Both the position numbers and the translations under genes were made by a program. The notes under the pieces were generated by a model. That model ran no database searches. It saw only the letters and a list, made by a program, of their open reading frames with translations, and was not told the origin of the DNA. From Yuukianura sp. NJ FZ-2021 (taxonomy: Eukaryota), in the NCBI GenBank assembly GCA_046563655.1, contig CM102290.1, positions 3,162,001-3,226,000 on the forward strand: a stretch of DNA of 64,000 nt, read 5' to 3'. Below are positions 6,001 through 29,134 of this stretch, piece by piece (the first letter of the stretch is position 1; every line of letters starts with the position of its first letter).

Positions 6001-6953
6001 AGTGAAAGTGTGAAAGTGATGGGAACAATTAATTTATGCATTACAAATTGAAAGTTGGTGCTCCATTGTCTGGAAGCGTTGTTCCATCCTCTTAGTTCAG
6101 AATGGAAGAACATGGTTCCCTACTCTGAATAGAGGACATTTCCATGCAAATAAATTAATCAGCCTTTCTCCTGCTACTTTCTACTTCTGCAAATTTAGAA
6201 CTCTGCTGAGAAAATACTTTTGCGACGAAAATTTTAGAACAAACTTGAAACTTTTCCGATTTGGCAAAAAGTTTCCAGTTTTTGTTGTGCGATGGGCACT
6301 TTGGAACAGTCAGACTTTCCCTGATCATTTCTGCCAATTAAGGACCAAGCCAACCGCATAACCACTGAAAAAGAAAACGTTTTCATTCCAGCGCCAAATT
6401 TGAAGTTCTGTATCCAATTTTTGTCATTTTGATAAAAAATCAACGTATTAGCGAAGATTTCAAACCAAGCAAAATATCTTGAAGAAGTGAATAATTTTTA
6501 CGATGGAAATTCAAATTATACAAGAGGCAAAATAGAATTCTGGAAATCGTAGAGATTGGTCATGCCTCAAAGCGCGGTTAATCGAAAAAAAGTGAATTAA
6601 ATCACAACTATCAGCACGAGACCTTCTTGTGCTAAATTTGTACCAAAAGTCTTTGAAAACTTTTTTTTTGTCGTCCATGGGAAGGACTTAAGGAAAGTTA
6701 GAGTAAATATAGGAAAGTTTACAAGGAAAAGTGAAAAGTACTCACCAGGGTACACGGCTCCTGGGACATATTTTCCTGGACTTCCTTGGATGATCACTTC
6801 AAAATTTCCGTTGCCAGGGGTTTTGGGGACTGCCATGGCCGTGGTTCTGTCACACATTGAACCATGGCCCACAGTCCAGAGACACGATGACAAGAGCAGA
6901 ATGAATCCAGCGATCTGGAGCATGTCATGCTGACTCTTCTCCAGTCCAATCAT
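1..6953 (-). CDS. F-spondin / spondin-1-like secreted ECM protein (signal peptide, Reeler, Spondin_N, thrombospondin type-1 repeats); multi-exon, 3' end runs off the window start
   Basis: Exon 6746-6953 gives a hydrophobic signal (FILLLSSCLWTVG) and the Reeler start. Exon ~3260-3508 has VLWVAPPVSAGCVVF. Spondin_N motifs CTACDEAKYELTFEGVWSALTHPKHFP and GLRQVAESGDSRALEGELK, plus SPDWFVGVS (~1795-1825). Several WxxWxxCSxxCGxG TSR exons (104-382, 441-845, ~936-1100). Confidence 0.92.
1142..1326. mobile_element. hAT-type MITE in a spondin intron
   Basis: Terminal inverted repeats CAGGGTTGTCAAAAATAT ... ATATTTTTGGCATCCCTG. Flanking 8-mers TTAATACG / CTAATAAG match at 6 of 8 positions (decayed 8-bp TSD). 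Internal repeat TGCTAAAA(A)CTAC. Confidence 0.6.
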
Positions 6954-8132
6954 TATTCCAGTAATGCTGCTGTCGATTGTGGTGTTTACATTATTTTAAA
7001 AGCTTCACAGATTGAACCGTTTCTTCTCTGCGTTCAGAACAAGACAGAAGTTTTGAAATCTTTTTTCTAGTTGCCTTTCAATTCGAATTTTTGAAATTTG
7101 TAGTGAAACTAAATGCTGGACGAACAGAAAATGGAAAGTAAAAGTGAGTTTCCGTGTATAACTTGTGTTCATGTGATACTGGGTGAAGTTTTTTCAAGAC
7201 TAGAAGTCTTGTTCGTCGTTTAGCATTAAAAATAGACGACCTTTTAAGCGGTGAATCTACGTCGCTACACCGTGGTAGAGGACAGGATTTTTCTTAGAAC
7301 TTTTGGAATGACGAACCAGGATTTCTTCTCGCCCTTCTCTAAAGTCAATCTAGCCAAAATCCCCGCAACTTTGCCAAAAAGACGGAAAAATCCCAGCTCA
7401 CATATTAACATGTCAATTCAAACTGGAAGTCGTCAATTCCAAGAAAACACGAGGCGCAAATAAATTTGAACTTATCCGTACATAGTGATGGCATTTAAAA
7501 AAAAAGGAAGCGAGAATGCGATCTTGTTAAAATTAAGTAATAAAATTCAGCAAATTCTAGAAACAAAAAAAATACTGCGTTTCTAGACAAAATTTTTTAC
7601 TCTGCTTGTTCGGCTTGGCACGAAACGCAGAAAAAGTTGTGCTAAAATCGTGTGCCGAAAAGAAAACGCTCAAACACTTAGCAGAAACAATAAATTTAGT
7701 TTTTAAAACAACAAAGAAAGTAAAAACTTACATGAATATTGTTGTGGACTTGCGGACGCTATAAACTTTTTACATCGGATTTTGCTAACTGAAGGATTCT
7801 TGGAATTTTTTTTTTCAAATTGTCAACAAAAATGTAACCACAAAGTTGACCAAGTATTGTGCCAACTCCACTTTCAAAATCCCACTGTGACACGGAGAAA
7901 GTACTCGAAACCGCAGTATGAACACTTTTGGAGAAAGTTTAGGAAAAAGTCACGCCAAAAGCACTCATTCAGCCTTTATTCCCAAAAACCCTCGACGCCG
8001 TGAACGTCTACGGTAATCTTCACAAAGAATAGCAACGTCTACTACTCTCCGACCTTAGAAAAACAAAAAGTCAGAACACATTATGTAAAAATTTAAAAAG
8101 AAAGAAAACATAAGGTATGCATTTGGTTCCAT

Positions 8133-9691: not shown

Positions 9692-12600
9692 TCATTCATG
9701 CCTGAAACAAATACAAACAACATAAAGTGATTTAGGAAAGATATACCGTAACTCATGTGTGCTGTCGCTTGTTAGACCAAGCGCCTTCTTCGTCTCTATC
9801 GTCACTAAAGAGACATAGGGTTCGAAACGCTGAGGAATTTCAACTTCAATTGTCTTCAAACAGCCTTTCAATTCATGAAATGGCACACGAAAACGCCCGT
9901 CCTCCAAATTAGTCTCATCTAGTTCGTCATCAGTTTCGACGTAGGAATGCTTGGTGATCCCAGTGAAACGAACACGCTGATTCGGACGCAAATTTAGTTC
10001 CTTGGGCTTCCGTACTTTTGGTGAAGTAGATGGACCAACTGGAACTTTGGCATTCTCTGGTAAAGTAATGTTCATCCCCAGCTTCTCAATTGCCTTCTGA
10101 GCTTCTGCGTACTTCCGGTCATACTCGGCCATGCTTGAATTTGGCAGCAAGTATCGAATTCCACTGAGCTTCCCACCATACTCAATGCAGGACTCTGTCA
10201 TCTTGACATACTGGGATTGCTCTTTTAGAAAAGTTGCTGTTCGTGATCGTACGATTGTTTCTAGTTTCTCTATCTTTTTCTTGTTGCCAGTCAGCTGTCG
10301 TTCAACATTAGCCAGTTGACGTGCGTAATAAATGCGCAAGTCGGTCAATTTCCTCTTTTGGAATTTTGCTGCAGATAGTTTCTTCAGTCTGACATTAAGT
10401 GCGTCAACCTTTGTAAGGCACTGCTTCCTATAACATAAAAACATCAACGTATATTACACCTTAAGCATTTGGAGTGTTTCCTTTCTCTAAATTTGAATTT
10501 GTAACTTACCTTTTGTTGACTAACTTCCGCTCCGCATTTCTCAAATTCAACTGAAGCTCTGACGTCTCCATCTTTCGACGAAGGGCGGCCTTCAACAGTC
10601 GTTCTCTCAGCAGTAGCTCCTTGTGCCGCTTCTCCTGGACAGTACCCTCAAGCGACTGAAATATAAGATTGATAGTTGTTGAATCCTTGGTAGGTTGCTG
10701 TTGAACATGTTCTTCTCCGTTGGCCATTTCAGTAGACTCGTTCACAGTGTCTCCATCCGGTTCCGCCAGGGCATCTCCAAACCTTTCATCAGTCGTGTCG
10801 GCTGCAGTGGTCGAATCTATAGATTCATTGGCTCCTAGTTGTTCTTCCTGCTCCGGAACTGGTAACACCTCTATAACATCCCACTCGAAATCAGTATCTG
10901 GAGTAGCATTCCTAGCACCAAACTGAATGTGGAAACCGATATCTTCAACGCCAGTTTCCGCCGCAGAGGGGCACATACATTCCTCATCCGAGATAGGTTC
11001 TTGCTTGATCTGGGTCACATCCAGCATATCCACTTCCATAGCTGTGCCAACTCCAGCTTGGCCACCAAATGTGTCTTCATGTTCTGTGTCTGCATTCGTC
11101 TCAACTGGCTCTTCTTCCACTTCAATTTTCGGCTGTAGTTGTTCTGTTTCCGGACCTTCTCGCCAATGAACTAGAAGAATTTGAATGTCTGGTTTGGCCT
11201 CAGTTTCATCACCTTCAACTTCCGTTTTCACTTTTACTTGATTGGTTTGAACAGATTCAGGTGTAGTAGTGGGGTAGAGAAGGAGCACTTCTGGTTTCGA
11301 GTCAATTTCAGTGTTTGAGACCGATTCCAGTTGTCCTGTTGTTAAGTTGATGTCTGAATCTGCATGAGTATCTTCAACTTCTTTCTTGACAGTTACACAG
11401 ACAATGGCATCCGGCTCAGTCGCTGGTTTCACTGGTTCTGCTGTGACGACTCTGCCAGAGTCATCCTCCAAAGTATTGACTTCCCTCTTCACTTCTACGT
11501 GGCCATCAAGAGGTTCCGTCATTCGTTTTACTTGTCCTGCAGTAACAACGCTGTCCGAATCGGCTTCTACATTCTCGACTTCCTTCTTGACTTCCACTTG
11601 ATCAAAACGACGTGCCTCCATAGTCGTTTCTGGTTGTTCGGCTCCTGGTGTCGAAATTGTATTTGCATCAGCATGATGAGTTTCAGTTTCTTTCTTTACT
11701 TCAACTTCACCAAAATGAAGTTCAACAATCGGTGCTGCTTGTTCTGTTCTGACGACTACGTCCGGCTCTAATTCAGCAGTTTCTACTTCTTTCTTAACTT
11801 CTAAGTGGCCAATTTCAACATCAGCGGACGCTTCGGACGATTTTGTTGTTTCGGCTGTGTCTGCGTCAGTAGGAACATTTTCAACTTCTTTTTTCACTTT
11901 GGATAGGTCAAATTCAACTTCAGTGTTGACTTCTGGCACGCCAGTTTCGACATTTCCACCGGACTCGACGCTGAGATCTTCAGTTTCTGACTTGGATTCC
12001 AATTCGACGTGATTCAATTCTTGAGCTCCTCTGGCTTCTGTTTCGGAGTAATTAGTTTGAATTTTTGTCGTTTCCGTGGAATCAACTTGAGGTGATTCGA
12101 GTTCTTGACGATGAAGATCAATTTCGTCTTCCGGCTGCTTATCTTTAGCGTTATTCGCTTTGTGCTTGCTGCCTGATTCAGTCTCATGGCTTCCCTCTCG
12201 ATCTCGTGCTGCAGCAGTGGTTAATGGGCCGTTTGTTTCCAAATTTGGTGTTACCACGTCTCGTTGCGAATGGTTTTGTTTAGACAACTTATTCACTTCC
12301 AGAGAATCACGATTCCCTTCTGAATGTGATGTTCTGACGACTCTTTTTCCTGGGGATGGTCTCTGGAAGCTCTTCGGAGATGGCTTATTGCTTAGGCTTG
12401 AAATCTCATTTGTAACGAACCTAGTTGACAATTCATGTCTTTCGACTTCGTTTGGATTGAAAAGATCAGTCTCCACTACTTGACGACGCCGGACATGGCG
12501 GTTTTCAGGGCCTTTTGCGTTTCCCCCCTTGGAATTCGTGAAGTTCATTTGAGCAGTTGAGGAAACTTCCATAGAATCCGCGTGATTATTTTGGAAATGT

Positions 12601-14943
12601 TCCTCGTTAGAAGAATTGTTCGTCTAAAATAAAATATTCCAAGTTTAAGTTATTGAACATAAAGACAATTACGGTTAGATATGAAATGAAGCTTACATGT
12701 GCAGACTTCGCCTCATTTCTGCCTTGACGAGATTCGCGTAAGTTCCGTCTATTGAATCTAGCCGCTACTGACTTACGTGTATGCTCAATAAAGTTGTCGA
12801 TATGAGATGAAACACTGGCTGGAATTGGAACTTCAGTAACTGAACGTTGTGAGCTGGAAACTTTTGACCGTTGATTGTCTGAGAGGTTCTCTTGAGAATG
12901 GCGACGGGAGTTGTTTCTACTAGTAAATCTTGGGGTAGAGTGAGACGAATGTTGATTGGACGAGGCATGCGATCTAGAAGACTCCTTTGTGCCAAATCTC
13001 ACTGTTCTGTTTCTATTCGGAGTGACTACGTCAGATTCATCGGAAGAAGTTTCACCACGGACGTTGATAATAATCGGTCGGATTCGTTTGCGTCTAGTAG
13101 CTAACTTGTTAGCAACCGTGTATCGCATGTTTCGGAAATCTGGTGGTGATTTGGATTGAAATGCCAACTGATTGTAAATTGTGCGCTGTATATTTGGGAA
13201 TCGATTAGTCGAGGACGATGGGCGTGCTGCATTAGATGTTGTTGGAGATGAAAATGCTGGTTTGGATAATGGCGAAGTTACTCCGTTTTGTCGTTTCCAT
13301 TTGTAGACAGAGCCGGTGGTGCTAACTCGTCTGGTGCTTGGATTTTCGCGAGTATCCTGGGAAATATTGACAACTAGATTTTCAGCCACATCTTTGAATG
13401 ATTCTCGCTCTGCTGCCAGTCTCGTCTTAGAGAGCTCGATCAAAAGTTTAGCACGGAGCTGATCCTCATCTTCATAGTGTTGAAATGATGGAGAATTCAC
13501 CAGAGTAACTTTAGGAGTAGGAGTTTCGTTAGAACTTCCTGAAGGTCCAGTTGTACAAGTGACGGTTTGAGATACTGACCGGGGTGAAATCATAGAACTT
13601 GACTGGGGTTGAACATGGCGCGTGGAAATTGACAGCGATTCTGGCATACTTTGCGGTGGAATGATAGAAACTCTCTGTATCGGGACATGGGATGCTCCCA
13701 AGTGAGGAAAACTTGGTCCTGGATCAAACGACGGTGTTGCTTGATTCTGTTGATAATTGGAATTCGGAATTTGCTCGACTACGAAAGTGGTGGCAAGGTC
13801 TCGTGGTTCGTAGGTCTTTGGTAGTTTTGACTTCTCATACATCCGATCCCACTCGGCTTCATGTGAGCGACTATTTCGACTGGAACTGCTGGAATCCTTG
13901 TCATGGAGTATCCTTGCCCGGCTTCTTGTATACTTTGGAGAATATTTCGGTGGGGAGTGTATCCGTCGACGTCTGCGGCTTGGAGATCTTGAATTGGAAC
14001 GATTTCTTTCCCTGAGGAAAGGAGAAGCTCTTCTTTTCTGAGACCGTCTATCGTCAGATTCATGGCGCGAATACCCAGACCGGTTAGTTTCTGTCCTAGA
14101 ACTGTGACGACTTCGATTCCTCTCATATTCGTGAATAGGTCGAATTTCTCCTACTAACTTCACGGTTTGGGTTTTAGGTACCGTGGTAGGCGGAGACTTA
14201 GCCTTGGTATTCTTTTGCTGTCGAGCCTTCGAACTTAGCGGCCGCGCTGATGGTTCAGGGGAAGAATAATGACTGGAAGACCTTGGAGAGAGTGAGAAGT
14301 CCTTTCCAAGACGAATTGCAGGAGGCGGGGGAGGAACAATTCCAAAAGGCTTCTGTGGTTCTACCGGCTTGATTGGATCAGCCGGAGGTGGTTCTGCAGC
14401 AGTGTCCAAGCGCTCGGCTTCTTTCGTGATTTCAGATCCTTGATCGGTGATGGCAGTGGCTGAAATTGGTAAAGGCATTACTGTAGTAGGACTTGCAGGA
14501 GGTAATTCTATTTCTTCTTCGGAGAAATGCTCTTCGCTATTGCAAGGTGAAACGTCCATATAAGTGCTATCGTAATTATCCTGTTGCAGGATACCAGGCT
14601 CAACTCCAATTCCTGTATTCTGTCGAGTTAGAGTAGCTTCGAGAACGTTTCGTCTTAGTTCAAGAATTTCTAAGTCATCCACAACATCAAGTGCATCAGT
14701 TTCATCTGAGCTTATGGATTCATTATCCGAAATGGTAACAACGGGCGGTCCGGCTTTTACTGGAGGTGGAAGCACGACAACGGAGTCGGAATCCGAGACT
14801 CCATCGTTAGAAATATCTTCTACATCATCTGGTAATAATTCATGTTTGAACATTTCAGAGCTCGGTGTGTACGGATCATCATCATCATCTGTAATCTCGC
14901 CTTCGGACACGGGTGACGTAGTTGCCTCTCTTCCAGTACTCAT
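9692..14943 (-). CDS. Large (~1700 aa) low-complexity nuclear protein carrying ZFC3H1-like N-terminal motifs and a coiled coil
   Basis: Three long exons (14943-12697, 12623-10510, 10427-~9692) join in frame across GT-AG introns. Ordered motifs EGEITDDD, LEILELRRNVL, QDNYDSTYMD, EDEDQLRAKLLIELSK, IIINVRGETSSDESD and IDNFIEHTRKS resemble ZFC3H1 motifs as I recall them. The exact C-terminal exon is uncertain. Confidence 0.6.
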
Positions 14944-15264
14944 GGATACGGTATTGCTTGCCAATCTAAAAAAAATATAATCGTTTTAACAATGATGGCA
15001 TCTCTTCTATTTTAGCTCAACAAGTCTTCCATAGAATCTCACTTAATACTCAACAAAAACTATTAAATAATCTTCGTACTAATTTTACTACTATCAGCGC
15101 AAAATAACACAATAACAGCGTGGGTGCTGGGTATAATTGTTTCTTCGATCCGTACGTAGAGCGCAATGACTCATTACCAATATATACGGATGATGAGCTC
15201 CCTATGGATGATGTTCATGTTTGATAAAATACAAACCATTCGAAAGTTTCAAATTGAAACTATT

Positions 15265-17628: not shown

Positions 17629-17909
17629 GGTATCGATGCCTTGTGTCTAAGTTCTCAGATTCAAGTATTGTAAACTGTAAAGTTGACGCCGAAATCTCGT
17701 TCCTTTGAGATTTATGCTACCAATCTTCAGACCCCAGAAAATGGAACTGGACATTCAATTCGTCTTGGCCGGAGCAGAAGAATCTGAAACAGTCAGAGTC
17801 AGAATTTATTAGGCAATAGGTCAGAGGTTCGGATATCAAGTAAGGCCAAGCTGAACACGATAATTTGTCATGTCTTGGTGTCAAATTTATCAAAGGACTC
17901 ACTTCAGAG

Positions 17910-18170
17910 TGTGAAACAAACGATCCTCTCAACCAATAAGAACCTGAAATGAGGCACACAGAATAAGATGCTGGATACTGGTTTATTGAAAGATAAACCA
18001 GTCAATCAATAATAATACTAATATATATAAAATATGATACAAATGTTGATCCTGTGTCCTGTGTCCTCTCTCCTCGCCGTCCGCTCCAGGAGTGAAGCTG
18101 CTCCGCTCCGTCTTCCTCCTCTGGCGCTGGATCTGCTGAGTTGGGTGGTGGGGGGTGATCCTCCCTCACA
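17910..18170 (-). repeat. 3' LTR
   Basis: TGTGAGGG...TTTCACA on the minus strand, preceded by the polypurine tract. Contains a TATA-like TTTATATATA and AATAAA. Confidence 0.96.
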
Positions 18171-19202
18171 CTCTCCTCCGATTGAGCCCCTTGACCTCCT
18201 TCTGAGGGTCCTCCGACTGGAATAAGGGGTCGTCCTCGTCTCTGCATGAGTCGTCCTGGTTTCTGCATGAATGTTCCGGAATTCTGGGTCTGATGCGGGT
18301 TGTTCCGGAGATGGTTCTTCTTCTTCTGGGTGTGGTTGTGAAGTAATGACTTGTTCCGATTGAGATTCCGAATTGATGAGCTGAAGATTTTCTTGTTTGG
18401 GAACTGGAATGATTTGGAATTGTTCGTCTGGAATGAGATTGATGAGTTCATAGACAATTTCTGGGTCGGATTCTTCGTAAGTTTCACATTCAATCTCCAT
18501 GTCGCTATCTTCTGAGTCTGAATCTGAACTTGTATCGATGATTTGTCGAATTTCCGTCTCCTCTTCGCTGAAATTTTTCTCGTAGAATGGTTTTTGACTG
18601 GCGACGATTCCAAATTGTGATGGTGGGACGTTGTAGACACTTAAGAGGAGGCTGTTCGTATCTGAAATAACTCTCAGAATATCAGTTTCGTATTTGTGAG
18701 TATATTTTGTAATTTTTCGTAAGTCTTCATTTGTAATTGGTGATTTTTTAGCAATTTCTGCTATAATTTCGCTTTTTAAGATTTGGAATACTGGTTTATG
18801 GAGTTCCTTTGCTCGATACTCTGTCCACATGAATATTCTTCGAAACATAGCCTGGTAGATTTGATTTGACGTTGACATGTGCTTAGCTAACTCAGTTTCT
18901 AATGAACTTTTAGTGGGTTTTAGTAATGCTAAGCATCTTTTTGCAGAAATTGGTAACTTTTGATTTGTATTTTCGTCCGAAAACTCCTTCCTGAGGTCAT
19001 TGTTGAGCACATCGACCTCAATCTTCTCCACTAACACATTCCACAGTAAAATTAAGTAATACGTATTCAATCTGACGTATTCAAATAATTTGTTCGGTAC
19101 TCTACCGATTTTGTCTCTCGCAGACCAATCTTTCTTTGCTTGCTGTAAGTTTGAGTAACAGTATTTCTTGAGGTAACTAAAGTCAACTGGATTATTATAC
19201 AT
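18018..19202 (-). CDS. Retrotransposon accessory ORF (394 aa): RNase D/Rrp6-like Exo III segment, HRDC-like domain, acidic and Arg-rich tail overlapping the 3' LTR
   Basis: DWSAR...PNKLFEYVRLNTYYLILLW resembles the DW.xRP...YAxxDxxYL motif of DEDDy nucleases. MFRRIFMWTEYRAKELHKPVFQILKSEIIAEIAKKSPITNEDLRKI...HKYETDILRVI fits the HRDC helical pattern. Confidence 0.75.
   Translation of the reverse strand: MYNNPVDFSYLKKYCYSNLQQAKKDWSARDKIGRVPNKLFEYVRLNTYYLILLWNVLVEKIEVDVLNNDLRKEFSDENTNQKLPISAKRCLALLKPTKSSLETELAKHMSTSNQIYQAMFRRIFMWTEYRAKELHKPVFQILKSEIIAEIAKKSPITNEDLRKITKYTHKYETDILRVISDTNSLLLSVYNVPPSQFGIVASQKPFYEKNFSEEETEIRQIIDTSSDSDSEDSDMEIECETYEESDPEIVYELINLIPDEQFQIIPVPKQENLQLINSESQSEQVITSQPHPEEEEPSPEQPASDPEFRNIHAETRTTHAETRTTPYSSRRTLRRRSRGSIGGECEGGSPPTTQLSRSSARGGRRSGAASLLERTARREDTGHRINICIIFYIY
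18171..18179 (-). other. Polypurine tract (PPT)
   Basis: GGAGGAGAG on the minus strand directly abuts the TG of the 3' LTR. Confidence 0.8.
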
Positions 19203-19439
19203 TTTTACATTAGTTCACCAACTGTGACATATTCTACACTATTCTAACTTAATCTAACCCGGGGTACTAACTTAATCTATTATCTTAAACCTGCTGTCTG
19301 TAACTAACTGGTATTTTTGATCTGAGAATTTTCTTTTCTGGCTCTTTCGCTAATTGGTAATGGTTTTGAGTAACTTTCTGCCCCTTGATTTCGATTCATT
19401 TCAGACAACACTCTTTCGAATCAATATTGACACATTTTG

Positions 19440-20638
19440 TTAGCACTATTTCGATGTAAGTTGGATCATAACACTTTTTTGAGCTTTTCTCGTATGGTTT
19501 CGAACCCATATGATCAATTTCTATAAGTATTTTGTAAGTCATGACGATTGCACTCTGAACAACAGTTTGACACTAAAGTTCAATGAGGCTGACCTCTCTG
19601 ATCCATAACCTTTGTTTTTAAGGCTTCCGTATCTGCAGAATACTTCGTCCTCTAAACAATTTACTATCTTTTTTGCTGTCGTTTTTATACTGATTGAAAG
19701 CATTCCTGTCTTATTTTGAAAGTTATCGAACCTTGTTTGCTGACGAACCATACAAGTTTTGGCATAATTTGCGAGTTAGTGGTTCATGACACTTTAAGTT
19801 GAACGCACACTTAATGCTCTCAAGATCATTATTATAACTAGCACTTAAATTTTAATTCTATTATGTAATCTATTTGTTTTCCTATCTAAGTCGACATTTT
19901 CTTTTTCTGTACGTACTACGTTTGATTCATTTGATGGCAGCGCAATGTGCTCATATTCCGCGGGGCTAGACTGTTGCTCCCGGGTAAGGCCTGTATTTTC
20001 CTTAACAGATACGTTGACTTAGTCGTGAGTCCTGGCGTATCACTGGAACTATTTTGGAGATCTCATCTTTTTAGCAACTCTGTTTTTTATAACATAAATA
20101 ATTCTGACTACTGCGTCGTTTTAACAGCATAATTCTGCTTTTAGTTCGAGGACAATTGCTCGTTTCTTTCAATTTCTTGTTTTCAACCATTTTGGTTTTA
20201 GTAATTTCTTTCTGAATTCAATAATTTCTTTATCATTCTTTTACTCTTCTCGATTAAACTTTAACTAACTATACATTTGAAATTTGACAACGTGTCAGGT
20301 CATCGTCGAGCACGTCGACCTCACCTTGGGAGCATCCCTTATTTCTATTTCATCATCTACTAAATTTTGATCTGTATTAAGAGCTGTTACTGTTGCTCTG
20401 TAAACTGTTAAATGTACAACTTCGTTTTTTCCTTTTAATTTCAGGAATAACACGGCGGAAATCCCATAATCTGAACTGTCTGTCGCGGTATAAATCTTTT
20501 TGACTAATCTAAACTATGTAATGTGACATCTGCGCACATTGTCTTTTTTAATTTTTTAAATTCTTGAATACTAAATTTTAAATACTAAATCGCTGCAATA
20601 ATTATGGAGTAAATTGAGACTTGGTGGGACTCTGTCCC
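19440..20638 (-). pseudogene. Heavily deleted pol remnant (RNase H start and integrase fragments; no protease or RT visible)
   Basis: ~20575-20410 reads QEFKKLKKTMCADVTLHSLD*SKKIYTATDSSDYGISAVLF (gypsy RNase H TDAS motif, with a stop). ~19770-19620 reads NYAKTCMVRQQT and TTAKKIVNCLEDEVFCRYGS (integrase zinc-finger end and core fragments). Confidence 0.82.
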
Positions 20639-22375
20639 TTAGTAATTTAAATATTGATTTTCCTGGCTGTTTCCGTACTGGGGAGGAACATCGTCGAGCA
20701 CGTCGTTCCTCTTATAACCTCTACTGGTAAAAATTGGCATTGTATTTGGAGAAAAATCTTCGTGACTTTGGTCTCTGTGACTATTTTGTTGACGTGAGAT
20801 AGTGGAAAATTCTTGTCCTTGACCTTGGAGATTGACTTCTCGAGGATTATACGTCATCGCAACTGCGTTTACGTTCGGACAATCTCGAACAAAATGACCA
20901 CCCTGGTGGCATACAAAACAGGTTAACTCTTCGTTCTGTTGCGTAAAATCTCTGTTCTGACTTTCAAACTCTTGCGGCCGTTGTTGGTATGTACGTCTTC
21001 CTTTGTAACCGTGAACTCTATTATTTTGAGAATAAAAATTTTGATCTTTTGTCAAGTACTCTGGGGTGTTATTCCATTGTCTGATCACATAGGAATTGCC
21101 TCTAGAAGTTGGACCTGTGTATGTCCTATAACTCTGAGTTTCACTTGGTTGAATTTCATTGTTTTGAAAATTTTGAGAATTTTGAAAATTTTGACCTCTT
21201 TCCTGATTTCCGTGATAATTTCCTCGATTACTGTTCCCTCTGTATGTGTTGTTTTGAAATTTGGGATTTTTTGACTCTGTAGCGTTAGAATCTGTTTTCT
21301 GAGCTGAATTAAGTTCACTCTGCTCTACTGGAATAGTATTAACATGAGGAATTGGGATATACGTTTTCGTTCGTTTAGCCTCTGATCTCAAATCGTAAAT
21401 GACTCTTTTCGCTTCATTAATTAAATCCGTCGGTGTCCAGCTAGCACTATAGCCAATCAATGTCCGAATTGTAGGATACAGAGCGTCTCTGCATCTCCGT
21501 ACAATGACGTGTGTCTCTTCTTTTGGATTCACCTGATGACTTAGAGTAACCATTTCCCATACAAATGACTCTACAGACTCCGTGACTTTCTGTTTTCTGG
21601 TTAATAACAACCTTGCTCTGAATTCTTTTTCTGCGACTGAATCGTATTTGGCTATAAACGCTTTTTTAAACTCTGACCAAGTTTTTATGTCGTCTCTGAC
21701 ATTATCGAACCATGATTTGACCTCCTTTGTCATAATCGTTCTGATCAAGTACAAATACTTGTCTTTTGTATAATTTTGGCTTTGAAAGTACGACTCTACA
21801 TCATGTAAATAAGAAACAGCTGTTCGCTTTCGGTAGTCGTAGACTGGAATAGGAATATTCGGGTTAATACCCGTAATAACGTAGTTGACCTTTGGCATTC
21901 GATTTTTCTTTCTTGTCTCTACTTCACTTTCATCATCGCTACTTTTCTCTTCATCATAATCATCTGAATCTTTTTCTTGGTCTGAGACGTCGACTGAACT
22001 CACGTCGCCTCTGACATTTTTCTTTTTAGGAATTTTATCCAACCACTTTTTGAAATCTGACCATGTGTCTAAACCCGCTTGTTCTAGACCTAATTGTCTA
22101 ATGACTCGTTTCGGTATGTTCTGCTGACCTGTTTGTTCTGGTGAGATACTGGCTCTGGCTGCTACTGTAGCACGACTTGCACCTGGATTAGCTTGAGTCA
22201 TAACGTTCTGCGTTACATTAGAATTTGGCGGACGTTGACCTTGTTCTCTAATTCTGTCTCTATTATTTGCACGTTCGTCTCTAGTGCTGACATGTGATCT
22301 AGGTGGTCTATGAGGTGGTACGTTCGGTTCTTCATTTTCAGTATCATCAACTGTGTCTTGTTCATGATCACTCAT
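20639..22375 (-). CDS. gag: Gag polyprotein (578 aa) with capsid-like region and CCHC zinc knuckle
   Basis: VKSWFDNVRDDIKTWSEFKKAFIAKY and RKQKVTESVESFV (retrotransposon gag / major-homology-region pattern), plus a CFVCHQGGHFVRDC knuckle. The ORF is uninterrupted. Confidence 0.93.
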   Translation of the reverse strand: MSDHEQDTVDDTENEEPNVPPHRPPRSHVSTRDERANNRDRIREQGQRPPNSNVTQNVMTQANPGASRATVAARASISPEQTGQQNIPKRVIRQLGLEQAGLDTWSDFKKWLDKIPKKKNVRGDVSSVDVSDQEKDSDDYDEEKSSDDESEVETRKKNRMPKVNYVITGINPNIPIPVYDYRKRTAVSYLHDVESYFQSQNYTKDKYLYLIRTIMTKEVKSWFDNVRDDIKTWSEFKKAFIAKYDSVAEKEFRARLLLTRKQKVTESVESFVWEMVTLSHQVNPKEETHVIVRRCRDALYPTIRTLIGYSASWTPTDLINEAKRVIYDLRSEAKRTKTYIPIPHVNTIPVEQSELNSAQKTDSNATESKNPKFQNNTYRGNSNRGNYHGNQERGQNFQNSQNFQNNEIQPSETQSYRTYTGPTSRGNSYVIRQWNNTPEYLTKDQNFYSQNNRVHGYKGRRTYQQRPQEFESQNRDFTQQNEELTCFVCHQGGHFVRDCPNVNAVAMTYNPREVNLQGQGQEFSTISRQQNSHRDQSHEDFSPNTMPIFTSRGYKRNDVLDDVPPQYGNSQENQYLNY

Positions 22376-23276
22376 TTTGACTCTTTTCCAAAAAAATTAT
22401 AACCTTGATTTTATGAAGAAAATGTGAGTTTGAACTCTGAAGGTCGATCTGACAAACTCAATTGACCTTTTAGATTCAACTCTACATGTATAACCTTGAC
22501 TCTTTTACTTTATGTACAACGGTGACTGAATAACTTGACTTTGCATGAGTAACCTTGATTGAACTTGAACTGTGTCGTATTAACGTGACTAAATCTTTAG
22601 ACTGCATGAATAACCTCAAATAACCTTGTTGTAACTGTACTGTATGTTAACAACTCAACTGAAACTGTAGATTTGCTTACGAACACGAAATAACCTTGAT
22701 TTGACCTTATATTCTGTGACTCTGCTAGTTCAGTGTGAATAACCTTGTATTACGTTCGACTTAACTTTGCAACTATGAAACTGACTCGTACTGTGAACTT
22801 AAACTTCATAAGTTACTGTATAACCTTGAATTTAAATCATTTGTCTCTCAATATGCTAATTCTGTTAATTAACTTTGCTCTGGTACGTTATTTGTCGTAT
22901 CTTGTCTCTATATACACTCATATGACGTTATGCACATTTCACATGTAACCTTGAAATCACGTCACAACTCTAGTTCATTGACTCTACTTTGCATAACTAA
23001 CTCGTACTACGCGATCTGCTTCATGTCTTTGACTTATATGACCTCAGATTTGACCTTGGACACACTGGAGGGACATTGTTATGCACATCGTCCCTTTGAC
23101 TTAGACTACATTTCACATACCTTCCTTATGAGCGATGTAAGATGCTGAGATGTACAATTGGAGCTTCAGCGTAGCGTAGATCAGCGTTGAAGTGGAGTAG
23201 TGAGTGACCTCTGACCTTCTGATGCGTAGTTTGATGATTTAGTAAGGACTTCAGACTGAAGTTGGAGGTTCCGTAA

Positions 23277-23291
23277 CGTCACAGGTCGCCA
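23277..23291 (-). other. Primer-binding site, probably tRNA-Arg type
   Basis: TGGCGACCTGTGACG lies one base after the 5' LTR. TGG complements the tRNA CCA end, and TGGCGACC resembles tRNA-Arg-primed gypsy-group elements. Confidence 0.8.
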
Positions 23292-23292
23292 A

Positions 23293-23553
23293 TGTGAAAC
23301 AAACGATCCTCTCAACCAATAAGAACCTGAAATGAGGCACACAGAATAAGATGCTGGATACTGGTTTATTGAAAGATAAACCAGTCAATCAATAATAATA
23401 CTAATATATATAAAATATGATACAAATGTTGATCCTGTGTCCTGTGTCCTCTCTCCTCGCCGTCCGCTCCAGGAGTGAAGCTGCTCCGCTCCGTCTTCCT
23501 CCTCTGGCGCTGGATCTGCTGAGTTGGGTGGTGGGGGGTGATCCTCCCTCACA
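23293..23553 (-). repeat. 5' LTR
   Basis: Same 261-bp sequence as 17910-18170, followed on the minus strand by the PBS. Confidence 0.96.
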
Positions 23554-23764
23554 AGAGAGTGTACTGTTAAGTCGAAATGTCAACCGAAATTTTGCCAATG
23601 GTATGCTGCTTTATCAAATTTCAAAATTTTTGCGGTGTGTAGATTGGGTATGAATGTAGTATTTCGTTTTTTTTCCCGCTATTTTTAGAACAAATGAATG
23701 GAACTATACATAACTGTTTACTTCATACAAAAGTACTAATACTTGGACAACAATGGATGAGCAT

Positions 23765-23931
23765 TGCTATACTGTCCAGAGGCAGGCCACCCCTTCCACC
23801 CCCCTCCCCCTCCTCGTCCCCCCTCCGAACTTTCTGGAAGGTTCTGCTATACTGTCCAGAGGCAGGCCACCCCTTCCCCCCCCCTCCCCCTCCTCGTCCC
23901 CCCTCCGAACTTTCTGGAAGGTTCGGCTATA
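23765..23931. repeat. 80-bp tandem duplication, C-rich (G-quadruplex-prone on minus strand), each unit with a heat-shock element
   Basis: TGCTATACTGTCCAGAGGCAGGCCACCCC... starts at both 23765 and 23845. Several runs of 4-9 C. Confidence 0.9.
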
Positions 23932-24204: not shown

Positions 24205-24885
24205 GTCAATGGACAAGGACGACGGATGACATGGACATACTCACGGTGGACAAACTGTAAAGTTCAAGGGCCCTCACTGTTACCTGGATATTTCCGAAGA
24301 CTTCAAGACCCGACGTCGGTAAGTTGCCAATTTTTTTTTTTGTTTAGCTTATCCTTTCCTATCGTAATGGTTGACTTCAACTTTTGCGAAGTCAATCTCT
24401 GCTTGACCAATCTTCAATGGACAAGGAAGGACGACCTGGGATGCCCTAACAGTAACAGTACTCACCGTGGACATACTACAGAGCTCAAGTGCCAGGACTG
24501 GAATGTGGATATTTGCGAAAACCACCACACGGCGGCAAGTTTTTGGCAACTTCATTTCAGCTTCTCTTTTCCTATCACAATCGCAATGTTTGACTTCTTT
24601 TTGCGAAGTCAATCTCTGCTTGACCAATCTTCAATGGACAAGGAAGGATGACCTAGGACACCTTAAGTACTACCTGTGGACAACCTACAGAGCTCAAGTG
24701 CCAGGACTGGAATGTGGATATTTGCGAAAACTATGAAAACCCACCAGACGTCGGCAAGTTTTTGGCAACTGTGGATGTCAGCTTCTCTTTTCCTATCGCA
24801 ATCGCAATGTGTTTGCGTTCTTTTTGTGACGTCAATCTCTGCTTGACCAATCTGCAACGGACAAGGAAGGATGACCTAGGACACC
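24205..24885. repeat. Diverged ~220-bp tandem repeat (about 3 copies)
   Basis: GTCAATCTCTGCTTGACCAATCT...GGACAAGGAAGGA recurs near 24390, 24608 and 24830. CTACAGAGCTCAAGTGCCAGGACTGGAATGTGG recurs near 24476 and 24685. Confidence 0.8.
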
Positions 24886-25375: not shown

Positions 25376-25926
25376 CTGTTCAGACCAAATTCGAAATTTT
25401 CAAAAAAAAATCTTTTCTAGAAGTTGCAAATTTTGGAATTAGTTTTTGGAAATTACCATTTTTTCAGTATCAGCTGTTTGTAGACTTGGTAGATTTGGAT
25501 TTTTAGTGATGGCTTCTTTCTCCATGTCATCTCATCTTCCCTCTCTCGTTCTCGTTCATCTTTTTCCAAACACGAATTAACTGTTAAGGTGTGATTTGTG
25601 TTTCCGATGCACGAATATGAATAATAACAATTTGAAAGTAAACATGATAAGCACATGGAGCAACCAATCGGGTATGTCTATTCCTCCGAAAACCAGATAT
25701 TTCAGACTGCCGATTCGCAGGTTTTTACGAGTGTTATATTATAGGCATTATGTTACGAGTGTGGATAATATTTTTATCCGGTTTTATCCATAGGGACGGT
25801 TTTAGAAATCATGGGAAAAAAACTTGAAAAAATAAGGAATTTGAAATAGCGAATAGTCACGTCAATTTGCAATTGTGTAACAGGTCAACCAGGCATTTCT
25901 TTTCTCAGATTTTCAAAATTTGGGAT

Positions 25927-28656
25927 TAATTTCGAATTTAGTTTTTGGCAACTCGAATCTCAACTTAAAAAATTTACTTAACGTATCCGAAATTTCTTAA
26001 AACGTAAAAAGGGAAAACAATTCCTTTCTAAATAATATTTCTAAATTTTTTACTAAACCTTCTCTGCACCATCACTTAGGAACACATACTAAATCCCACA
26101 ACCGAAACCTACGGAATCACTTCTTGACGAATGTGTCCATGCACAGATCGTTTCAAAGTCTCAATCCGCATTGGTTCGGGGATGTGGTAAAAAACTTAGT
26201 CCCTGTGTCTCTTGCTTGAATGCGCAGCAGAAGTGTTATTATTAGAGTTAACGAGACTTGACTTGACGTTTAACGTGACTTTCGGTTTTTTTCTATACGC
26301 TGGAACATACGGCATTGTAGTAGATTGGGCGCGAGGACGGATCGAGGCTTGCAAGTAGCTGTTCAGGTGACACAGGGCAGGGAGGGGTGTGAATCTCTCT
26401 CGGTAAGTCCGGAGTGTGCCAGTTCGAGTGAACTGGGGCCGGAATCTCGAGCGTAGTCATTGACTAGTCCTCTGTCGTATGTATCTTCGTGTAGACTAAT
26501 TCCGAATTTCGTTTTTCACAACTCGAATCTCAACTTAAAAAATTTACTTAACGTAGCCGAAATTTCTTAAAACGCAAAAAGTGAAAACAACTCTTTTCTA
26601 AATAATAGTTCTAAATTTTTTCCTAAACCTTCTCTGCACCATCACTTAGGAACACATACTAAATCCCACAACCGAAACCTACGGAATCACTTCTTGGCGA
26701 ATGTGTCCATGCACAGATCGTTTCAAAGTCTCAATCCGCATTGGTTCGGGGATGTGGTAAAAAACTTAGTCCCTGTGTCTCTTGCTTGAATGCGCAGCAG
26801 AAGTGTTATTATTAGAGTTAACGAGACTTGACTTGACGTTTAACGTGACTTTCGGTTTTTTTCTATACGCTGGAACATACGGCATTGTAGTAGATTGGGC
26901 GCGAGGACGGATCGAGGCTTGCAAGTAGCTGTTCAGGTGACACAGGGCAGGGAGGGGTGTGAATCTCTCTCGGTAAGTCCGGAGTGTGCCAGTTCGAGTG
27001 AACTGGGGCCGGAATCTCGAGCGTAGTCATTGACTAGTCCTCTGTCGTATGTATCTTCGTGTAGACTAATTCCGAATTTCGTTTTTCACAACTCGAATCT
27101 CAACTTAAAAAATTTACTTAACGTAGCCGAAATTTCTTAAAACGCAAAAAGTGAAAACAACTCTTTTCTAAATAATAGTTCTAAATTTTTTCCTAAACCT
27201 TCTGTGCACCATCACTTAGGAACACATACTAAATCCCACAACCGAAACCTACGGAATCACTTCTTGACGAATGTGTCCATGCACAGATCGTTTCAAAGTC
27301 TCAATCCGCATTGGTTCGGGGATGTGGTAAAAAACTTAGTCCCTGTGTCTCTTGCTTGAATGCGCAGCAGAAGTGTTATTATTAGAGTTAACGAGACTTG
27401 ACTTGACGTTTAACGTGACTTTCGGTTTTTTTCTATACGCTGGAACATACGGCATTGTAGTAGATTGGGCGCGAGGACGGATCGAGGCTTGCAAGTAGCT
27501 GTTCAGGTGACACAGGGCAGGGAGGGGTGTGAATCTCTCTCGGTAAGTCCGGAGTGTGCCAGTTCGAGTGAACTGGGGCCGGAATCTCGAGCGTAGTCAT
27601 TGACTAGTCCTCTGTCGTATGTATCTTCGTGTAGACTAATTCCGAATTTCGTTTTTCACAACTCGAATCTCAACTTAAAAAATTTACTTAACGTAGCCGA
27701 AATTTCTTAAAACGCAAAAAGTGAAAACAACTCTTTTCTAAATAATAGTTCTAAATTTTTTCCTAAACCTTCTGTGCACCATCACTTAGGAACACATACT
27801 AAATCCCACAACCGAAACCTACGGAATCACTTCTTGACGAATGTGTCCATGCACAGATCGTTTCAAAGTCTCAATCCGCATTGGTTCGGGGATGTGGTAA
27901 AAAACTTAGTCCCTGTGTCTCTTGCTTGAATGCGCAGCAGAAGTGTTATTATTAGAGTTAACGAGACTTGACTTGACATTTAACGGGACTTTCGGTTTTT
28001 TTCCTATACGCTAGAACATACGGCATTGTAGTAGACTGGGCGCGGAGACGGATCGAGGCTTGCAAGTAGCTGTTCAGGTGACACAGGGCAGGGAGGGGTG
28101 TGAATTTCTCTCGGTGAGTCCGGAGTGTGCCAGTTCGAGTGAACTGGGGCCGGAATCTCGAGCGTAGTCATTGACTAGTCCTCTGTCGTATGTATCTTCG
28201 TGTAGACTAATTCCGAATTTCGTTTTTCACAACTCGAATCTCAACTTAAAAAATTTACTTAACGTAGCCGAAATTTCTTAAAACGCAAAAAGTGAAAACA
28301 ACTCTTTTCTAAATAATAGTTCTAAATTTTTTCCTAAACCTTCTGTGCACCATCACTTAGGAACACATACTAAATCCCACAACCGAAACCTACGGAATCA
28401 CTTCTTGACGAATGTGTCCATGCACAGATCGTTTCAAAGTCTCAATCCGCATTGGTTCGGGGATGTGGTAAAAAACTTAGTCCCTGTGTCTCTTGCTTGA
28501 ATGCGCAGCAGAAGTGTTATTATTAGAGTTAACGAGACTTGACTTGACATTTAACGGGACTTTCGGTTTTTTTCCTATACGCTAGAACATACGGCATTGT
28601 AGTAGACTGGGCGCGGAGACGGATCGAGGCTTGCAAGTAGCTGTTCAGGTGACACA
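25927..28656. repeat. Tandem array of a 570-bp unit, ~4.8 copies
   Basis: AACTCGAATCTCAACTTAAAAAATTTAC recurs at ~25950, 26520, 27090, 27660 and 28231. Units are nearly identical and contain no ORF of 60 aa or more. Confidence 0.97.
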
Positions 28657-29134
28657 CGGCAAATGAAAAGCCTAGTAGTTATTACTGTAATGTCTGTAGT
28701 GTGAGCGGGATTTGAAAAGCGCTTTTATTCTGAGGATTAGTGTATCCTCAGTTTGGCCGGTATGCTCAGCATGTGTTTTGTTTAGTACCTCCATTGAAAA
28801 AGGAATCAAATGGGAATGCTTGGTGCCTCGTGCTATCTTCTAACCATCGTGCCAATTTCTTTACGTGTGCCGGTGCCGGTCACACGTTAAAACGTTGCAG
28901 AGAAACATCGATACTTTAATTAATACTGGTATTCTGTTAAGACGAAGCTCGTATGTTTGTTTTCTGGTTTTCGATTGATCAAGGTCTACAAGGTTAACCA
29001 GAGTTCACAAGAAGCAGAAAGGTAACGCAACATACCATGCGATAAGTTACCTATCAGTAATTATGGACTTTGACGTAAACATGTAACCCTTCATCTCGCA
29101 AATGTCATTAAGGTAAACTCACATACCAAGAACT

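Follow-up and report, generated by a model that had tools for sequence, protein, structure and literature searches.

A compact RNA stem-loop recurs four times on the sense strand of a young, gag-bearing retroelement in a 64-kb stretch of DNA from Yuukianura sp. NJ FZ-2021 (contig CM102290.1; this whole stretch is called the window). Each hairpin is built from a lower stem of 5-8 pairs, a G.U pair, an A/A mismatch, an upper stem of 3 bp and a GCNNR pentaloop, and the sequence of the lower stem varies freely among the copies. The recurrence is almost certainly real and not a product of chance, and we consider it probable that the hairpins are a structure on which selection acts in single-stranded form. 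The best overall explanation, which we put forward tentatively and which draws on sequence evidence, would be that the hairpins form an RNA module on the sense strand that is under selection and offers several binding sites to a protein, with Gag as its most likely partner. The features of the element are listed in Table 1.

Table 1. Features of the retroelement and of its hairpins, in window coordinates.
Feature	Position	Strand	Details
Target-site duplication CTCT	17906..17909, partner 23554-23557	.	4-bp; from sequence reading
3' LTR	17910..18170	-	100% identity with 5' LTR
ORF2	18018..19202	-	394 aa; exonuclease-domain tail, HRDC, acidic stretch, Arg-rich end; reaches into 3' LTR
Hairpin copy 4, inside ORF2	18992..19020	-	encodes ..EVDVLNNDL..; -14.8 kcal/mol, z -4.3; 45.1 bits
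Integrase remnants, weak	19617..19766	-	tblastn, L002 pol residues 803-824 / 876-897, E 0.21 / 0.011
Hairpin copy 3, between RNase H and integrase remnants	20297..20321	-	-14.2 kcal/mol, z -2.7; 44.6 bits
RNase H remnant from deleted pol	20340..20483	-	tblastn, P0116 residues 513-556, 42% identity, E 0.018
Gag-pol -1 frameshift site, relic candidate	20626..20651	-	in-frame heptamer T TTA AAT (20651-20645), 6-nt spacer, hairpin GGGAC-AGA-GTCCC (20638-20626)
gag ORF	20639..22375	-	578 aa; Retrotrans_gag and one CCHC knuckle
Hairpin copy 2, gag C-terminal tail	20683..20711	-	encodes ..RNDVLDDVP..; -14.2 kcal/mol, z -4.2; 47 bits
Claimed fifth variant	22919..22945	-	shares 11-mer ATGTGCATAAC with copy 1; z -0.6; 3.2 bits
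Hairpin copy 1, leader	23069..23095	-	AGGGAC-GA-UGU-GCAUA-ACA-AU-GUCCCU; -13.1 kcal/mol, z -4.1; 43.8 bits
Primer-binding-site-like stretch (putative)	23277..23291	-	TGGCGACC...; 1 base past LTR; sequence reading
5' LTR	23293..23553	-	261 nt; ends TG..CA; 100% identity with 17910-18170

An earlier sequence-only reading had counted 4-5 copies of the stem-loop, and four of them were recovered on the minus strand. A degenerate pattern of the 16-nt core (GAYGTGCWYRACRATG) gave 4 exact matches in the 64 kb against an expectation of 0.00 from shuffled sequences and with any match in 0/100 shuffles. Each match is on the minus strand, which is the sense strand of the element; when 2 mismatches were allowed, again 4 matches were obtained versus 0.53 expected. 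The covariance model that the reading had proposed was run on the window, and the four copies scored 43.8-47 bits versus 14.9 for the runner-up site. Resemblance among the copies is confined to 17-29 nt and ends at the hairpin edges, and a segmental duplication as source of the copies was ruled out, as their flanks are without similarity. Only copy 1 is placed past the primer-binding site and ahead of gag, the other three being located 2.4-4.1 kb downstream, and copy 3 was confirmed to lie amid deleted pol, flanked by the RNase H remnant on one side and the integrase remnants on the other. The fifth site is where the earlier count failed. The 11-mer that it shares with copy 1 has 2 matches in the window versus 0.03 expected; however, the site folds with only -6.8 kcal/mol, 56/200 shuffles doing equally well, and because its fold is no better than that of shuffles and its model score is low, it may at most be related to copy 1 in decayed form.

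From the alignment of the four copies, which all come from one element, it is evident that pairing is retained in 42/44 stem cells and that, of the 11 stem pairs, 6 have both partners changed and 0 have a single partner changed. The covariation score of the four copies was reached by 0/500 shuffles, and when the 3' partner was shifted by 1-3 columns, pairing fell to 25-61%. The outer stems thus differ in sequence and yet pair, as the reading had stated, and the G.U pair and A/A mismatch that it described as kept are indeed invariant in 4/4 copies, as are the first two loop bases (GC). Its further statement that the inner stem covaries (C-G versus U-A) holds for the change itself, but the core differs at only 3 positions, each a CpG-to-TpG/CpA transition, so that the inner-stem covariation is the weakest part of the evidence and, judged on the sequence, could be neutral. 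The double changes of the outer stem lie away from CpG sites in the four-copy alignment. As the observed/expected ratio of CpG is 0.90, CpG decay is not strong here.

Each of the four copies folds as proposed, with the energies and z-scores given in Table 1. Along the sense strand of the 5.6-kb element, 33-nt windows that reach -13 kcal/mol or lower are found at the four hairpins only, and clusters of such windows number 4 on this strand versus 17 on the 64 kb. The minimum free energy structure of the whole element contains all four hairpins. Pair probabilities of copies 1, 2, and 4 stay at 0.96-0.99 with flanks that bring the folded stretch to as much as 816 nt (0.96-0.97 for copy 1 across contexts of 216-816 nt); for copy 3 they are 0.76 and 0.66 in smaller contexts and 0.00 in the 816-nt ensemble. 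Antisense RNA folds with -10.1 to -15.5 kcal/mol, which is weaker than the sense RNA in 3/4 copies, and in it an A/C mismatch takes the place of the invariant G.U pair, giving a 2x2 internal loop. For these two reasons the hairpin is better suited to the sense than to the antisense strand, in agreement with the observation that its wobble pairs work on the former.

The element that harbors the hairpins appears to be a pol-less, non-autonomous Ty3/Gypsy derivative. It has direct LTRs that end in TG..CA, and its insertion site carries a short duplication. Contigs with the empty-site joint 17905->23554, at which 4 letters are common to both sides, occur in 4/4 sequencing runs, and since the LTRs are identical and insertion-free contigs are present in all these runs, the element is regarded as young. 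The window contains 0 further copies of the element and no tRNA genes were found in its 64 kb, nor tandem repeats in the leader (TRF). Many variant contigs of the element family exist in the 4 sequencing runs, and among the 40 of 920 variants listed 0 fall inside a hairpin, which is too few to judge hairpin variation in sister copies. The runs containing the sequence are 5 DNA runs from 2 studies, with 0 RNA runs listed.

In the gag product, Retrotrans_gag was recognized above its cut-off (Pfam, 8.8e-7) and the zf-CCHC match (0.002, 18.6 bits) lies under its cut-off of 20.8; C486, C489, H494, and C499, which make up the knuckle, hardly vary in the gag alignment. A full scan yielded 327 gag relatives at E<=1e-3, the top one with 42% identity, and a word-index search yielded none. 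Traces of pol are limited to the weak RNase H and integrase remnants, which follow the order expected for Ty3/Gypsy, and the P0116 segment used for the former corresponds to RT_RNaseH (Pfam). Full-length relatives have the order RT-RH-IN; a PR domain was detected ahead of it in P0102, and none in the pol of L002, a related metagenome locus. The heptamer T TTA AAT together with the hairpin that follows it is likely a relic gag-pol -1 frameshift site, to judge from its layout, and the pattern of this hairpin occurs a single time in the window. Copy 2 was rejected as a stimulator of -1 frameshifting, which needs to be placed 5-9 nt downstream of the heptamer, as its end is 31 nt upstream of this heptamer, which is the only one in frame, and the stimulator position is occupied by the different hairpin at 20638-20626.

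The second ORF indeed encodes the HRDC-like protein that had been noticed: HRDC (1.7e-6) is its sole Pfam domain, its Atlas features give 0.93 to HRDC/EXOSC10-like clusters, and in a BLASTP comparison it aligns with residues 226-350 of L002 ORF3 (22% identity, E 4e-5), a region that comprises the end of the exonuclease domain and the HRDC domain. L002 ORF3 contains DNA_pol_A_exo1 (2.9e-25) and HRDC (7.5e-7). ORF2 lacks the first two thirds of the exonuclease domain, the catalytic part included, has Asn opposite the Asp of the ExoIII region, and shares with L002 ORF3 an Arg-rich C-terminal stretch. By this alignment, ORF2 is classed as a truncated homologue of the exonuclease-HRDC ORF3 of an autonomous relative. 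A word-index search returned no ORF2 homologues, and a single-sequence AlphaFold model of ORF2 (pLDDT 47) was too poor for analysis.

A search for the hairpin outside the element covered 6 metagenome loci, which are distant relatives. The motif was absent from all 6 (best model score 11.3 bits, E 0.34), and no recurring hairpin of their own was found in these loci, L002 included. The gag-tail segment encoding copy 2 is not conserved in gag relatives and copy 4 falls within a 13-residue gap of the alignment between ORF2 and L002 ORF3; because relatives have no residues there, the protein sequence at the coding copies appears dispensable. Both coding copies (2 and 4) keep the reading frame. Rfam 15 gave 0 matches at gathering score over the window and 6 weak matches over 17900-23560 (E 0.62-5.6), of which 0 overlap a hairpin. 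Viral contigs contained neither a gag relative nor a match to the 23-nt hairpin pattern. In 596 Gb of prokaryote genomes, 3 matches to this pattern were obtained, all in open frames reading VDVLDDD on bacterial contigs of 61-67% GC, and they were taken as chance hits in a search space of this size. In the literature searched, no multi-copy covarying hairpin was found described for an LTR retrotransposon, and nothing relevant was found on HRDC with retrotransposon gag or on stem-loop packaging signals of LTR retrotransposons in non-autonomous elements.

Whether these hairpins reflect selection on an RNA structure must be weighed against other origins. Chance, or selection on a peptide DVL[DN][DN] and not on nucleic-acid structure, is hardly credible: three copies can be read in one frame as xDVLxxDx, but copy 1 belongs to the leader, which is untranslated, and copy 3 to decayed pol, the flanking arms covary, the peptide DV[LH][DN][DN] is present in 0/154 proteins searched, of which about 150 are gag relatives, and shuffles yield 0.00 matches. 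It is also unlikely that the hairpins are a functionless by-product, a near-palindrome spread by template switching in reverse transcription with its arms matched by hairpin-templated correction. The units are compact (27-31 nt) with dissimilar flanks, every one of the four combinations of arm type with core type is represented, which inter-copy recombination would yield, distant relatives are without the hairpins, and contig pieces terminate within three of them (20306, 18995, 23092). However, such correction should have perfected the G.U pair and the A/A mismatch, which are both maintained in every copy, and neither the intact frame of both coding copies nor six double changes with no one-sided intermediates fits well with it. 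A role of the structure as single-stranded DNA in reverse transcription, for instance by causing a pause, by allowing strand transfer or by serving the exonuclease/HRDC protein as substrate, appears very improbable. Sense-strand DNA does fold into the same hairpins (-6.8 to -8.6 kcal/mol, z -1.9 to -4.2), and HRDC domains and DEDDy exonucleases act on single-stranded DNA too, as stated in PMC5408684, but the DNA hairpins have about half the stability of the RNA, minus-strand DNA is weaker still (-4.8 to -7.8 kcal/mol), and the conserved G.T mismatch is of no obvious use in DNA.

The earlier reading had suggested packaging, export or germline localisation as roles of the hairpins, possibly with Gag or the HRDC-like protein as reader. 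On the reading that we tentatively prefer, the four hairpins would be one structural module of the sense-strand genomic RNA, its pairing held by selection, which would fold in vivo so that the invariant internal loop and first loop bases, resembling a recognition surface, are presented on a lower stem that need only pair. What speaks against it is that all the covariation comes from four copies in one element, that the 6 distant loci and the 154 proteins are without the motif, that antisense RNA and single-stranded DNA fold too, and that copy 3 has a pair probability of 0.00 in the 816-nt ensemble. The module would give a protein encoded by the element several places to dock, the most likely candidate being its own Gag acting via the single CCHC knuckle, and four sites per RNA would mark the pol-less RNA for capture into particles, the enzymes of which would be supplied by an autonomous helper. 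Reading by Gag for packaging is, taken by itself, a possible but doubtful part of this proposal. Less likely still, the reader may be ORF2, whose role would be that of an adaptor, comparable to Rev with its RRE, or of an RNA shield. The HRDC domain, the alignment to the exonuclease end and HRDC of L002 ORF3 with the first two thirds of the exonuclease domain missing, and the Arg-rich ends of both ORF3-type proteins would suit such a function, and inactive DEDD nuclease derivatives can still bind RNA according to PMC5408684; yet L002 has a full ORF3 and no such hairpins, and the word-index search gave ORF2 no homologues. As a speculation, the hairpins might form a private address system, in which four operator-like hairpins are read by Gag and/or by a nuclease-dead exonuclease-HRDC protein with an Arg-rich tail, letting the parasite RNA out-compete helper RNA for particles or export; this would be a Rev/RRE- or MS2-like pair evolved within an invertebrate retrotransposon.

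The coat-protein operators of MS2 and PP7 are small hairpins with an unpaired purine a few pairs under a small loop, which allow any stem sequence and keep the unpaired base and those of the loop constant. The layout is alike here, but a 1x1 A/A mismatch beside a G.U pair takes the place of the bulge, and organism and protein are unrelated. The CTE of MPMV and the RRE of HIV are each one large structure at a single site; what is comparable is a repeated internal-loop motif on unspliced retroelement RNA and a possible Arg-rich accessory reader. The signals for packaging and dimerisation in the leaders of retroviruses and of Ty1/Ty3 (PMC4974528) share with the present case a cis-acting RNA structure, a Gag zinc knuckle, and one copy in the leader, whereas here 3/4 copies are far off, in the end of gag, the pol remnant, and ORF2. 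Kissing-loop dimerisation was rejected, the loops not being self-complementary. According to PMC4974528, the places where Gag of Ty1/Ty3 binds RNA lack a precise definition and may be scattered. The packaging signals dispersed over the genomes of ssRNA viruses and of hepatitis B virus (PMC6281560, PMC7612645) likewise comprise several stem-loops, coding regions included, and likewise carry one short recognition motif upon variable stems, as the four hairpins do; their motifs, in contrast, are degenerate and located in loops (e.g., RGAG), whereas here a near-identical 16-nt core with an internal loop is found, the host is an LTR retroelement, and the hairpins are a candidate signal. The bdelloid rotifer LTR retrotransposons Juno and Vesta carry a DEDDy-exonuclease ORF3 (PMC5408684); they are of Ty3/Gypsy type, and where env would lie they have a gene for an RNase D-like exonuclease, as in L002. 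The window element, in contrast, is without the catalytic part of the exonuclease and without pol; the likeness lies in ORF2, which aligns with the tail and HRDC of L002 ORF3. In that paper, the terms "stem-loop," "hairpin," and "HRDC" have 0 occurrences.

The element presents a compact and sharply defined hairpin in four copies, with free and fixed positions clearly split, in a young gag-bearing retroelement that has lost pol. If the hairpins are read by a protein, they would offer a simple and testable model for the choice of RNA by a non-autonomous retroelement, and also for the role of accessory exonuclease/HRDC genes in such elements.

A search of the 64 kb for the hairpin core GAYGTGCWYRACRATG returned four matches, every one of them on the minus strand (expectation from 100 shuffles: 0.00), and when two mismatches were allowed the same four sites were found and no extra one appeared (0.53 expected). 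These copies fold as drawn in the sequence-only reading, which had described a stem-loop recurring along the sense strand of the retroelement, with folding energies of -13.1, -14.2, -14.2, and -14.8 kcal/mol and z-scores of -4.1, -4.2, -2.7, and -4.3. A covariance model made from them and scanned with filters off gave 43.8-47 bits for the four copies and 14.9 bits for the runner-up site in the window. The fifth copy claimed as a variant at 22945-22919 did not hold up, as its z-score was -0.6, 56 of 200 shuffles folded as well, and the model gave it 3.2 bits. It has the 11-mer ATGTGCATAAC in common with the leader copy (2 matches versus 0.03 expected), and the count is four hairpin copies and one possible decayed relative.

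The four copies align without gaps, and in the resulting structure of 11 pairs standard pairs occupy 42 of the 44 cells. Two-sided changes were found in six of the 11 pairs and one-sided changes in none, in agreement with the claim that the outer stems vary yet pair. Of 500 shuffles, none equalled the copies in covariation score or in percentage paired, and pairing fell to 25-61% when the 3' partner was shifted by 1-3 columns. The G.U pair, the A/A mismatch, two upper-stem pairs, and the first two loop bases are invariant. This covariation comes from four copies in a single element, and the three differences within the core (C>T, G>A, and G>A) all lie at CpG sites, so that the inner-stem exchange of C-G for U-A, also put forward as covariation, could be due to CpG decay on both arms. 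The CpG observed/expected ratio of 0.90 in the element, compared to 0.91 outside, indicates that such decay is weak there, and a fourth CpG, containing the G of the G.U pair, is unchanged in all copies. None of the outer-stem double changes is located at a CpG site.

The LTR retroelement carrying the hairpins is 5,644 bp long and lies on the minus strand; its features are listed in the table.

Features of the retroelement and positions of the four hairpin copies
Feature	Position	Strand	Remarks
LTR pair	23553-23293 and 18170-17910	-	261 nt each, 100% identical, TG start, CA end
Target duplication CTCT		 	4 bp, both sides of LTR pair; read from sequence
Primer-binding-site-like TGGCGACC...	one base past 5' LTR	-	sequence reading
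Hairpin copy 1	23095-23069	-	leader
gag	22375-20639	-	578 aa; Retrotrans_gag match exceeds Pfam cut-off
Hairpin copy 2	20711-20683	-	end of gag
RNase H remnant	20483-20340		between gag and ORF2; E 0.018
Hairpin copy 3	20321-20297	-	
Integrase remnants	19766-19617		between gag and ORF2; weak
ORF2	19202-18018	-	394 aa; HRDC domain
Hairpin copy 4	19020-18992	-	in ORF2

The zf-CCHC match in gag is under the cut-off, and the knuckle residues hardly vary between gag relatives. Copy 3 lies between the RNase H and integrase remnants, so that its earlier placement inside decayed pol was right. No second copy of the element was found within the window. Contigs in all four sequencing runs, from two studies, pass from 17905 straight to 23554, sharing 4 letters at the joint, which implies that insertion-free versions of the site exist and that the element boundaries are right; as summed depth over the flanks is high and variants there are numerous, these joints may instead come from further members of a host repeat and not from an empty allele. 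Nearer sister copies of the element family are present in the sequencing runs. Logan contig pieces start or stop inside hairpins 4, 3, and 1 (18995, 20306, and 23092), and hairpin 1 also contains one end of a contig joint (22910 to 23092); such ends could mark divergence or recombination points of family variants.

Several other features were observed in and around the element. An in-frame heptamer T TTA AAT, which we take to be of the canonical slippery type, stands two codons ahead of the gag stop and is followed after 6 nt by a hairpin GGGAC-AGA-GTCCC, whose arms match those of copy 1; the -1 frame past it shuts after about 26 codons, and the region (20626-20651, minus strand) resembles the relic of a gag-pol -1 frameshift site. 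The leader (22400-23059, minus strand) contains seven YCAAGGTYA in 660 nt (13 in the whole window, 2.5 expected), with further one-off variants seen by eye, and TRF detected no regular tandem repeat in it. The motif presumably resembles an extended AGGTCA-type nuclear-receptor half-site, and the set may be a transcription-factor site array. Adjoining the 5' LTR, at 23765-23924 and 24236-24885, are an 80-nt C-rich unit duplicated in tandem and a repeat of about 220 nt in three copies (D4-D6), and at 25924-28661 a 570-bp unit is present five times in tandem with 94-100% identity (families D1 and D2). On the minus strand at 9692-14985, three long open frames measuring 253, 705, and 792 aa between stops are low-complexity and Ser/Arg/Glu-rich, had no Pfam match, and probably belong as exons to a host gene for a disordered protein.

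Gag relatives numbered 327 at E<=1e-3, the best with 42% identity; the named relatives among 10 of these come from a springtail and a pseudoscorpion, and two of them are Ty3/Gypsy-type polyproteins with the order gag-PR-RT-RH-IN. L002, a metagenome locus, is an autonomous Ty3/Gypsy relative with gag, pol, and an ORF3 (5755-7539, plus strand) that has a 3'-5' exonuclease domain (2.9e-25) and an HRDC domain (7.5e-7). Passages of PMC5408684 report ORF3s of this exonuclease type in Juno and Vesta, elements of bdelloid rotifers, and do not mention stem-loop, hairpin, or HRDC. ORF2 aligns with the exonuclease-domain end and HRDC of the L002 ORF3 (E 4e-5, 22% identity); it retains the exonuclease-domain tail, the HRDC, and an Arg-rich end, lacks the remainder of the exonuclease domain, and the ExoIII-region Asp stands opposite Asn. 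ORF2 looks to be a truncated and probably inactive derivative of such an ORF3. In six relative loci (20.9 kb) the best match to the hairpin model was 11.3 bits (E 0.34) and no recurring hairpin of their own was found; as these loci have just 28-56% gag identity and are mostly fragments, this absence shows a lineage-specific feature, not a lack of function.

In local alignments of 176-nt stretches, similarity between the copies is confined to 17-29 nt, the hairpin itself, which is a compact module and not a duplicated segment. Two arm types (AGGRAC/GUYCCU and GAGGUC/GACCU) and two core types (innermost variable pair C-G or U-A) occur in all four combinations; that the hairpins were generated incidentally, by template switching plus hairpin-templated correction, is unlikely, albeit worth keeping in mind. 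A 33-nt window slid over both strands finds just four clusters reaching -13 kcal/mol or lower on the element sense strand, namely the four copies, compared to 17 over the full 64-kb minus strand, and the minimum-energy fold computed for the entire element (500-nt span limit) contains all four. When folded in 216- to 816-nt contexts, copies 1, 2, and 4 pair with a mean probability of 0.96-0.99, and copy 3, with 0.76, 0.66, and 0.00 as the context grows to 816 nt, is the least secure. The wobble pair fits the sense strand, as had been claimed: the G.U pair is invariant and becomes an A/C mismatch on the opposite strand; the antisense RNA, carrying a 2x2 internal loop, folds at -12.8, -15.5, -10.1, and -12.4 kcal/mol, weaker in three of four copies. 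This comparison favours a sense RNA and leaves room for other readings. An action in single-stranded DNA seems improbable; such hairpins are predicted to be about half as stable (sense -6.8 to -8.6, antisense -4.8 to -7.8), and here too the sense range is the stronger.

Selection on an encoded peptide, or chance, is very hard to credit. Copy 2 encodes ..RNDVLDDVP.. in the gag C-terminal tail and copy 4 ..EVDVLNNDL.. in ORF2, the core being read in one and the same frame in both, and the peptide DV[LH][DN][DN] was absent from the 154 proteins compared, about 150 of them gag relatives (0.26 expected). The copy-2 segment has no counterpart in four of five aligned relatives, and copy 4 coincides with a 13-residue gap versus the L002 ORF3, whose placement is approximate at 22% identity. 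The hairpins therefore look to occupy spots where protein sequence is free, and their placement fits a nucleic-acid signal set into tolerant coding sites. That ORF2, with its HRDC and Arg-rich end, is the reader of the hairpins is doubtful, and somewhat more so than the template-switching origin.

No Rfam family matches the hairpins, and a literature search found no LTR retrotransposon described as having a covarying hairpin in multiple copies. In its presumed working the module comes closest to dispersed packaging signals or to coat-protein operators, but it cannot be assigned to them, since they are defined by protein binding whereas the module is known from sequence. Passages of a review state that Gag sites on Ty1/Ty3 RNA are undefined and perhaps scattered (PMC4974528), and abstracts on ssRNA viruses and HBV treat dispersed packaging signals as established (PMC6281560, PMC7612645). 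From these precedents, the fixed loop and internal loop on a free stem, and the presence of gag without pol, we tentatively propose, at somewhat short of an even chance, a selected sense-RNA module that would be a repeated protein-binding site, with Gag the likeliest reader and packaging the likeliest outcome. A free stem sequence with fixed internal-loop and loop bases is the pattern typical of protein-recognised hairpins. An element with gag and without pol would depend on selection by particles using a helper's enzymes, and the repeated hairpins would serve as docking sites that Gag reads, the RNA being packaged.
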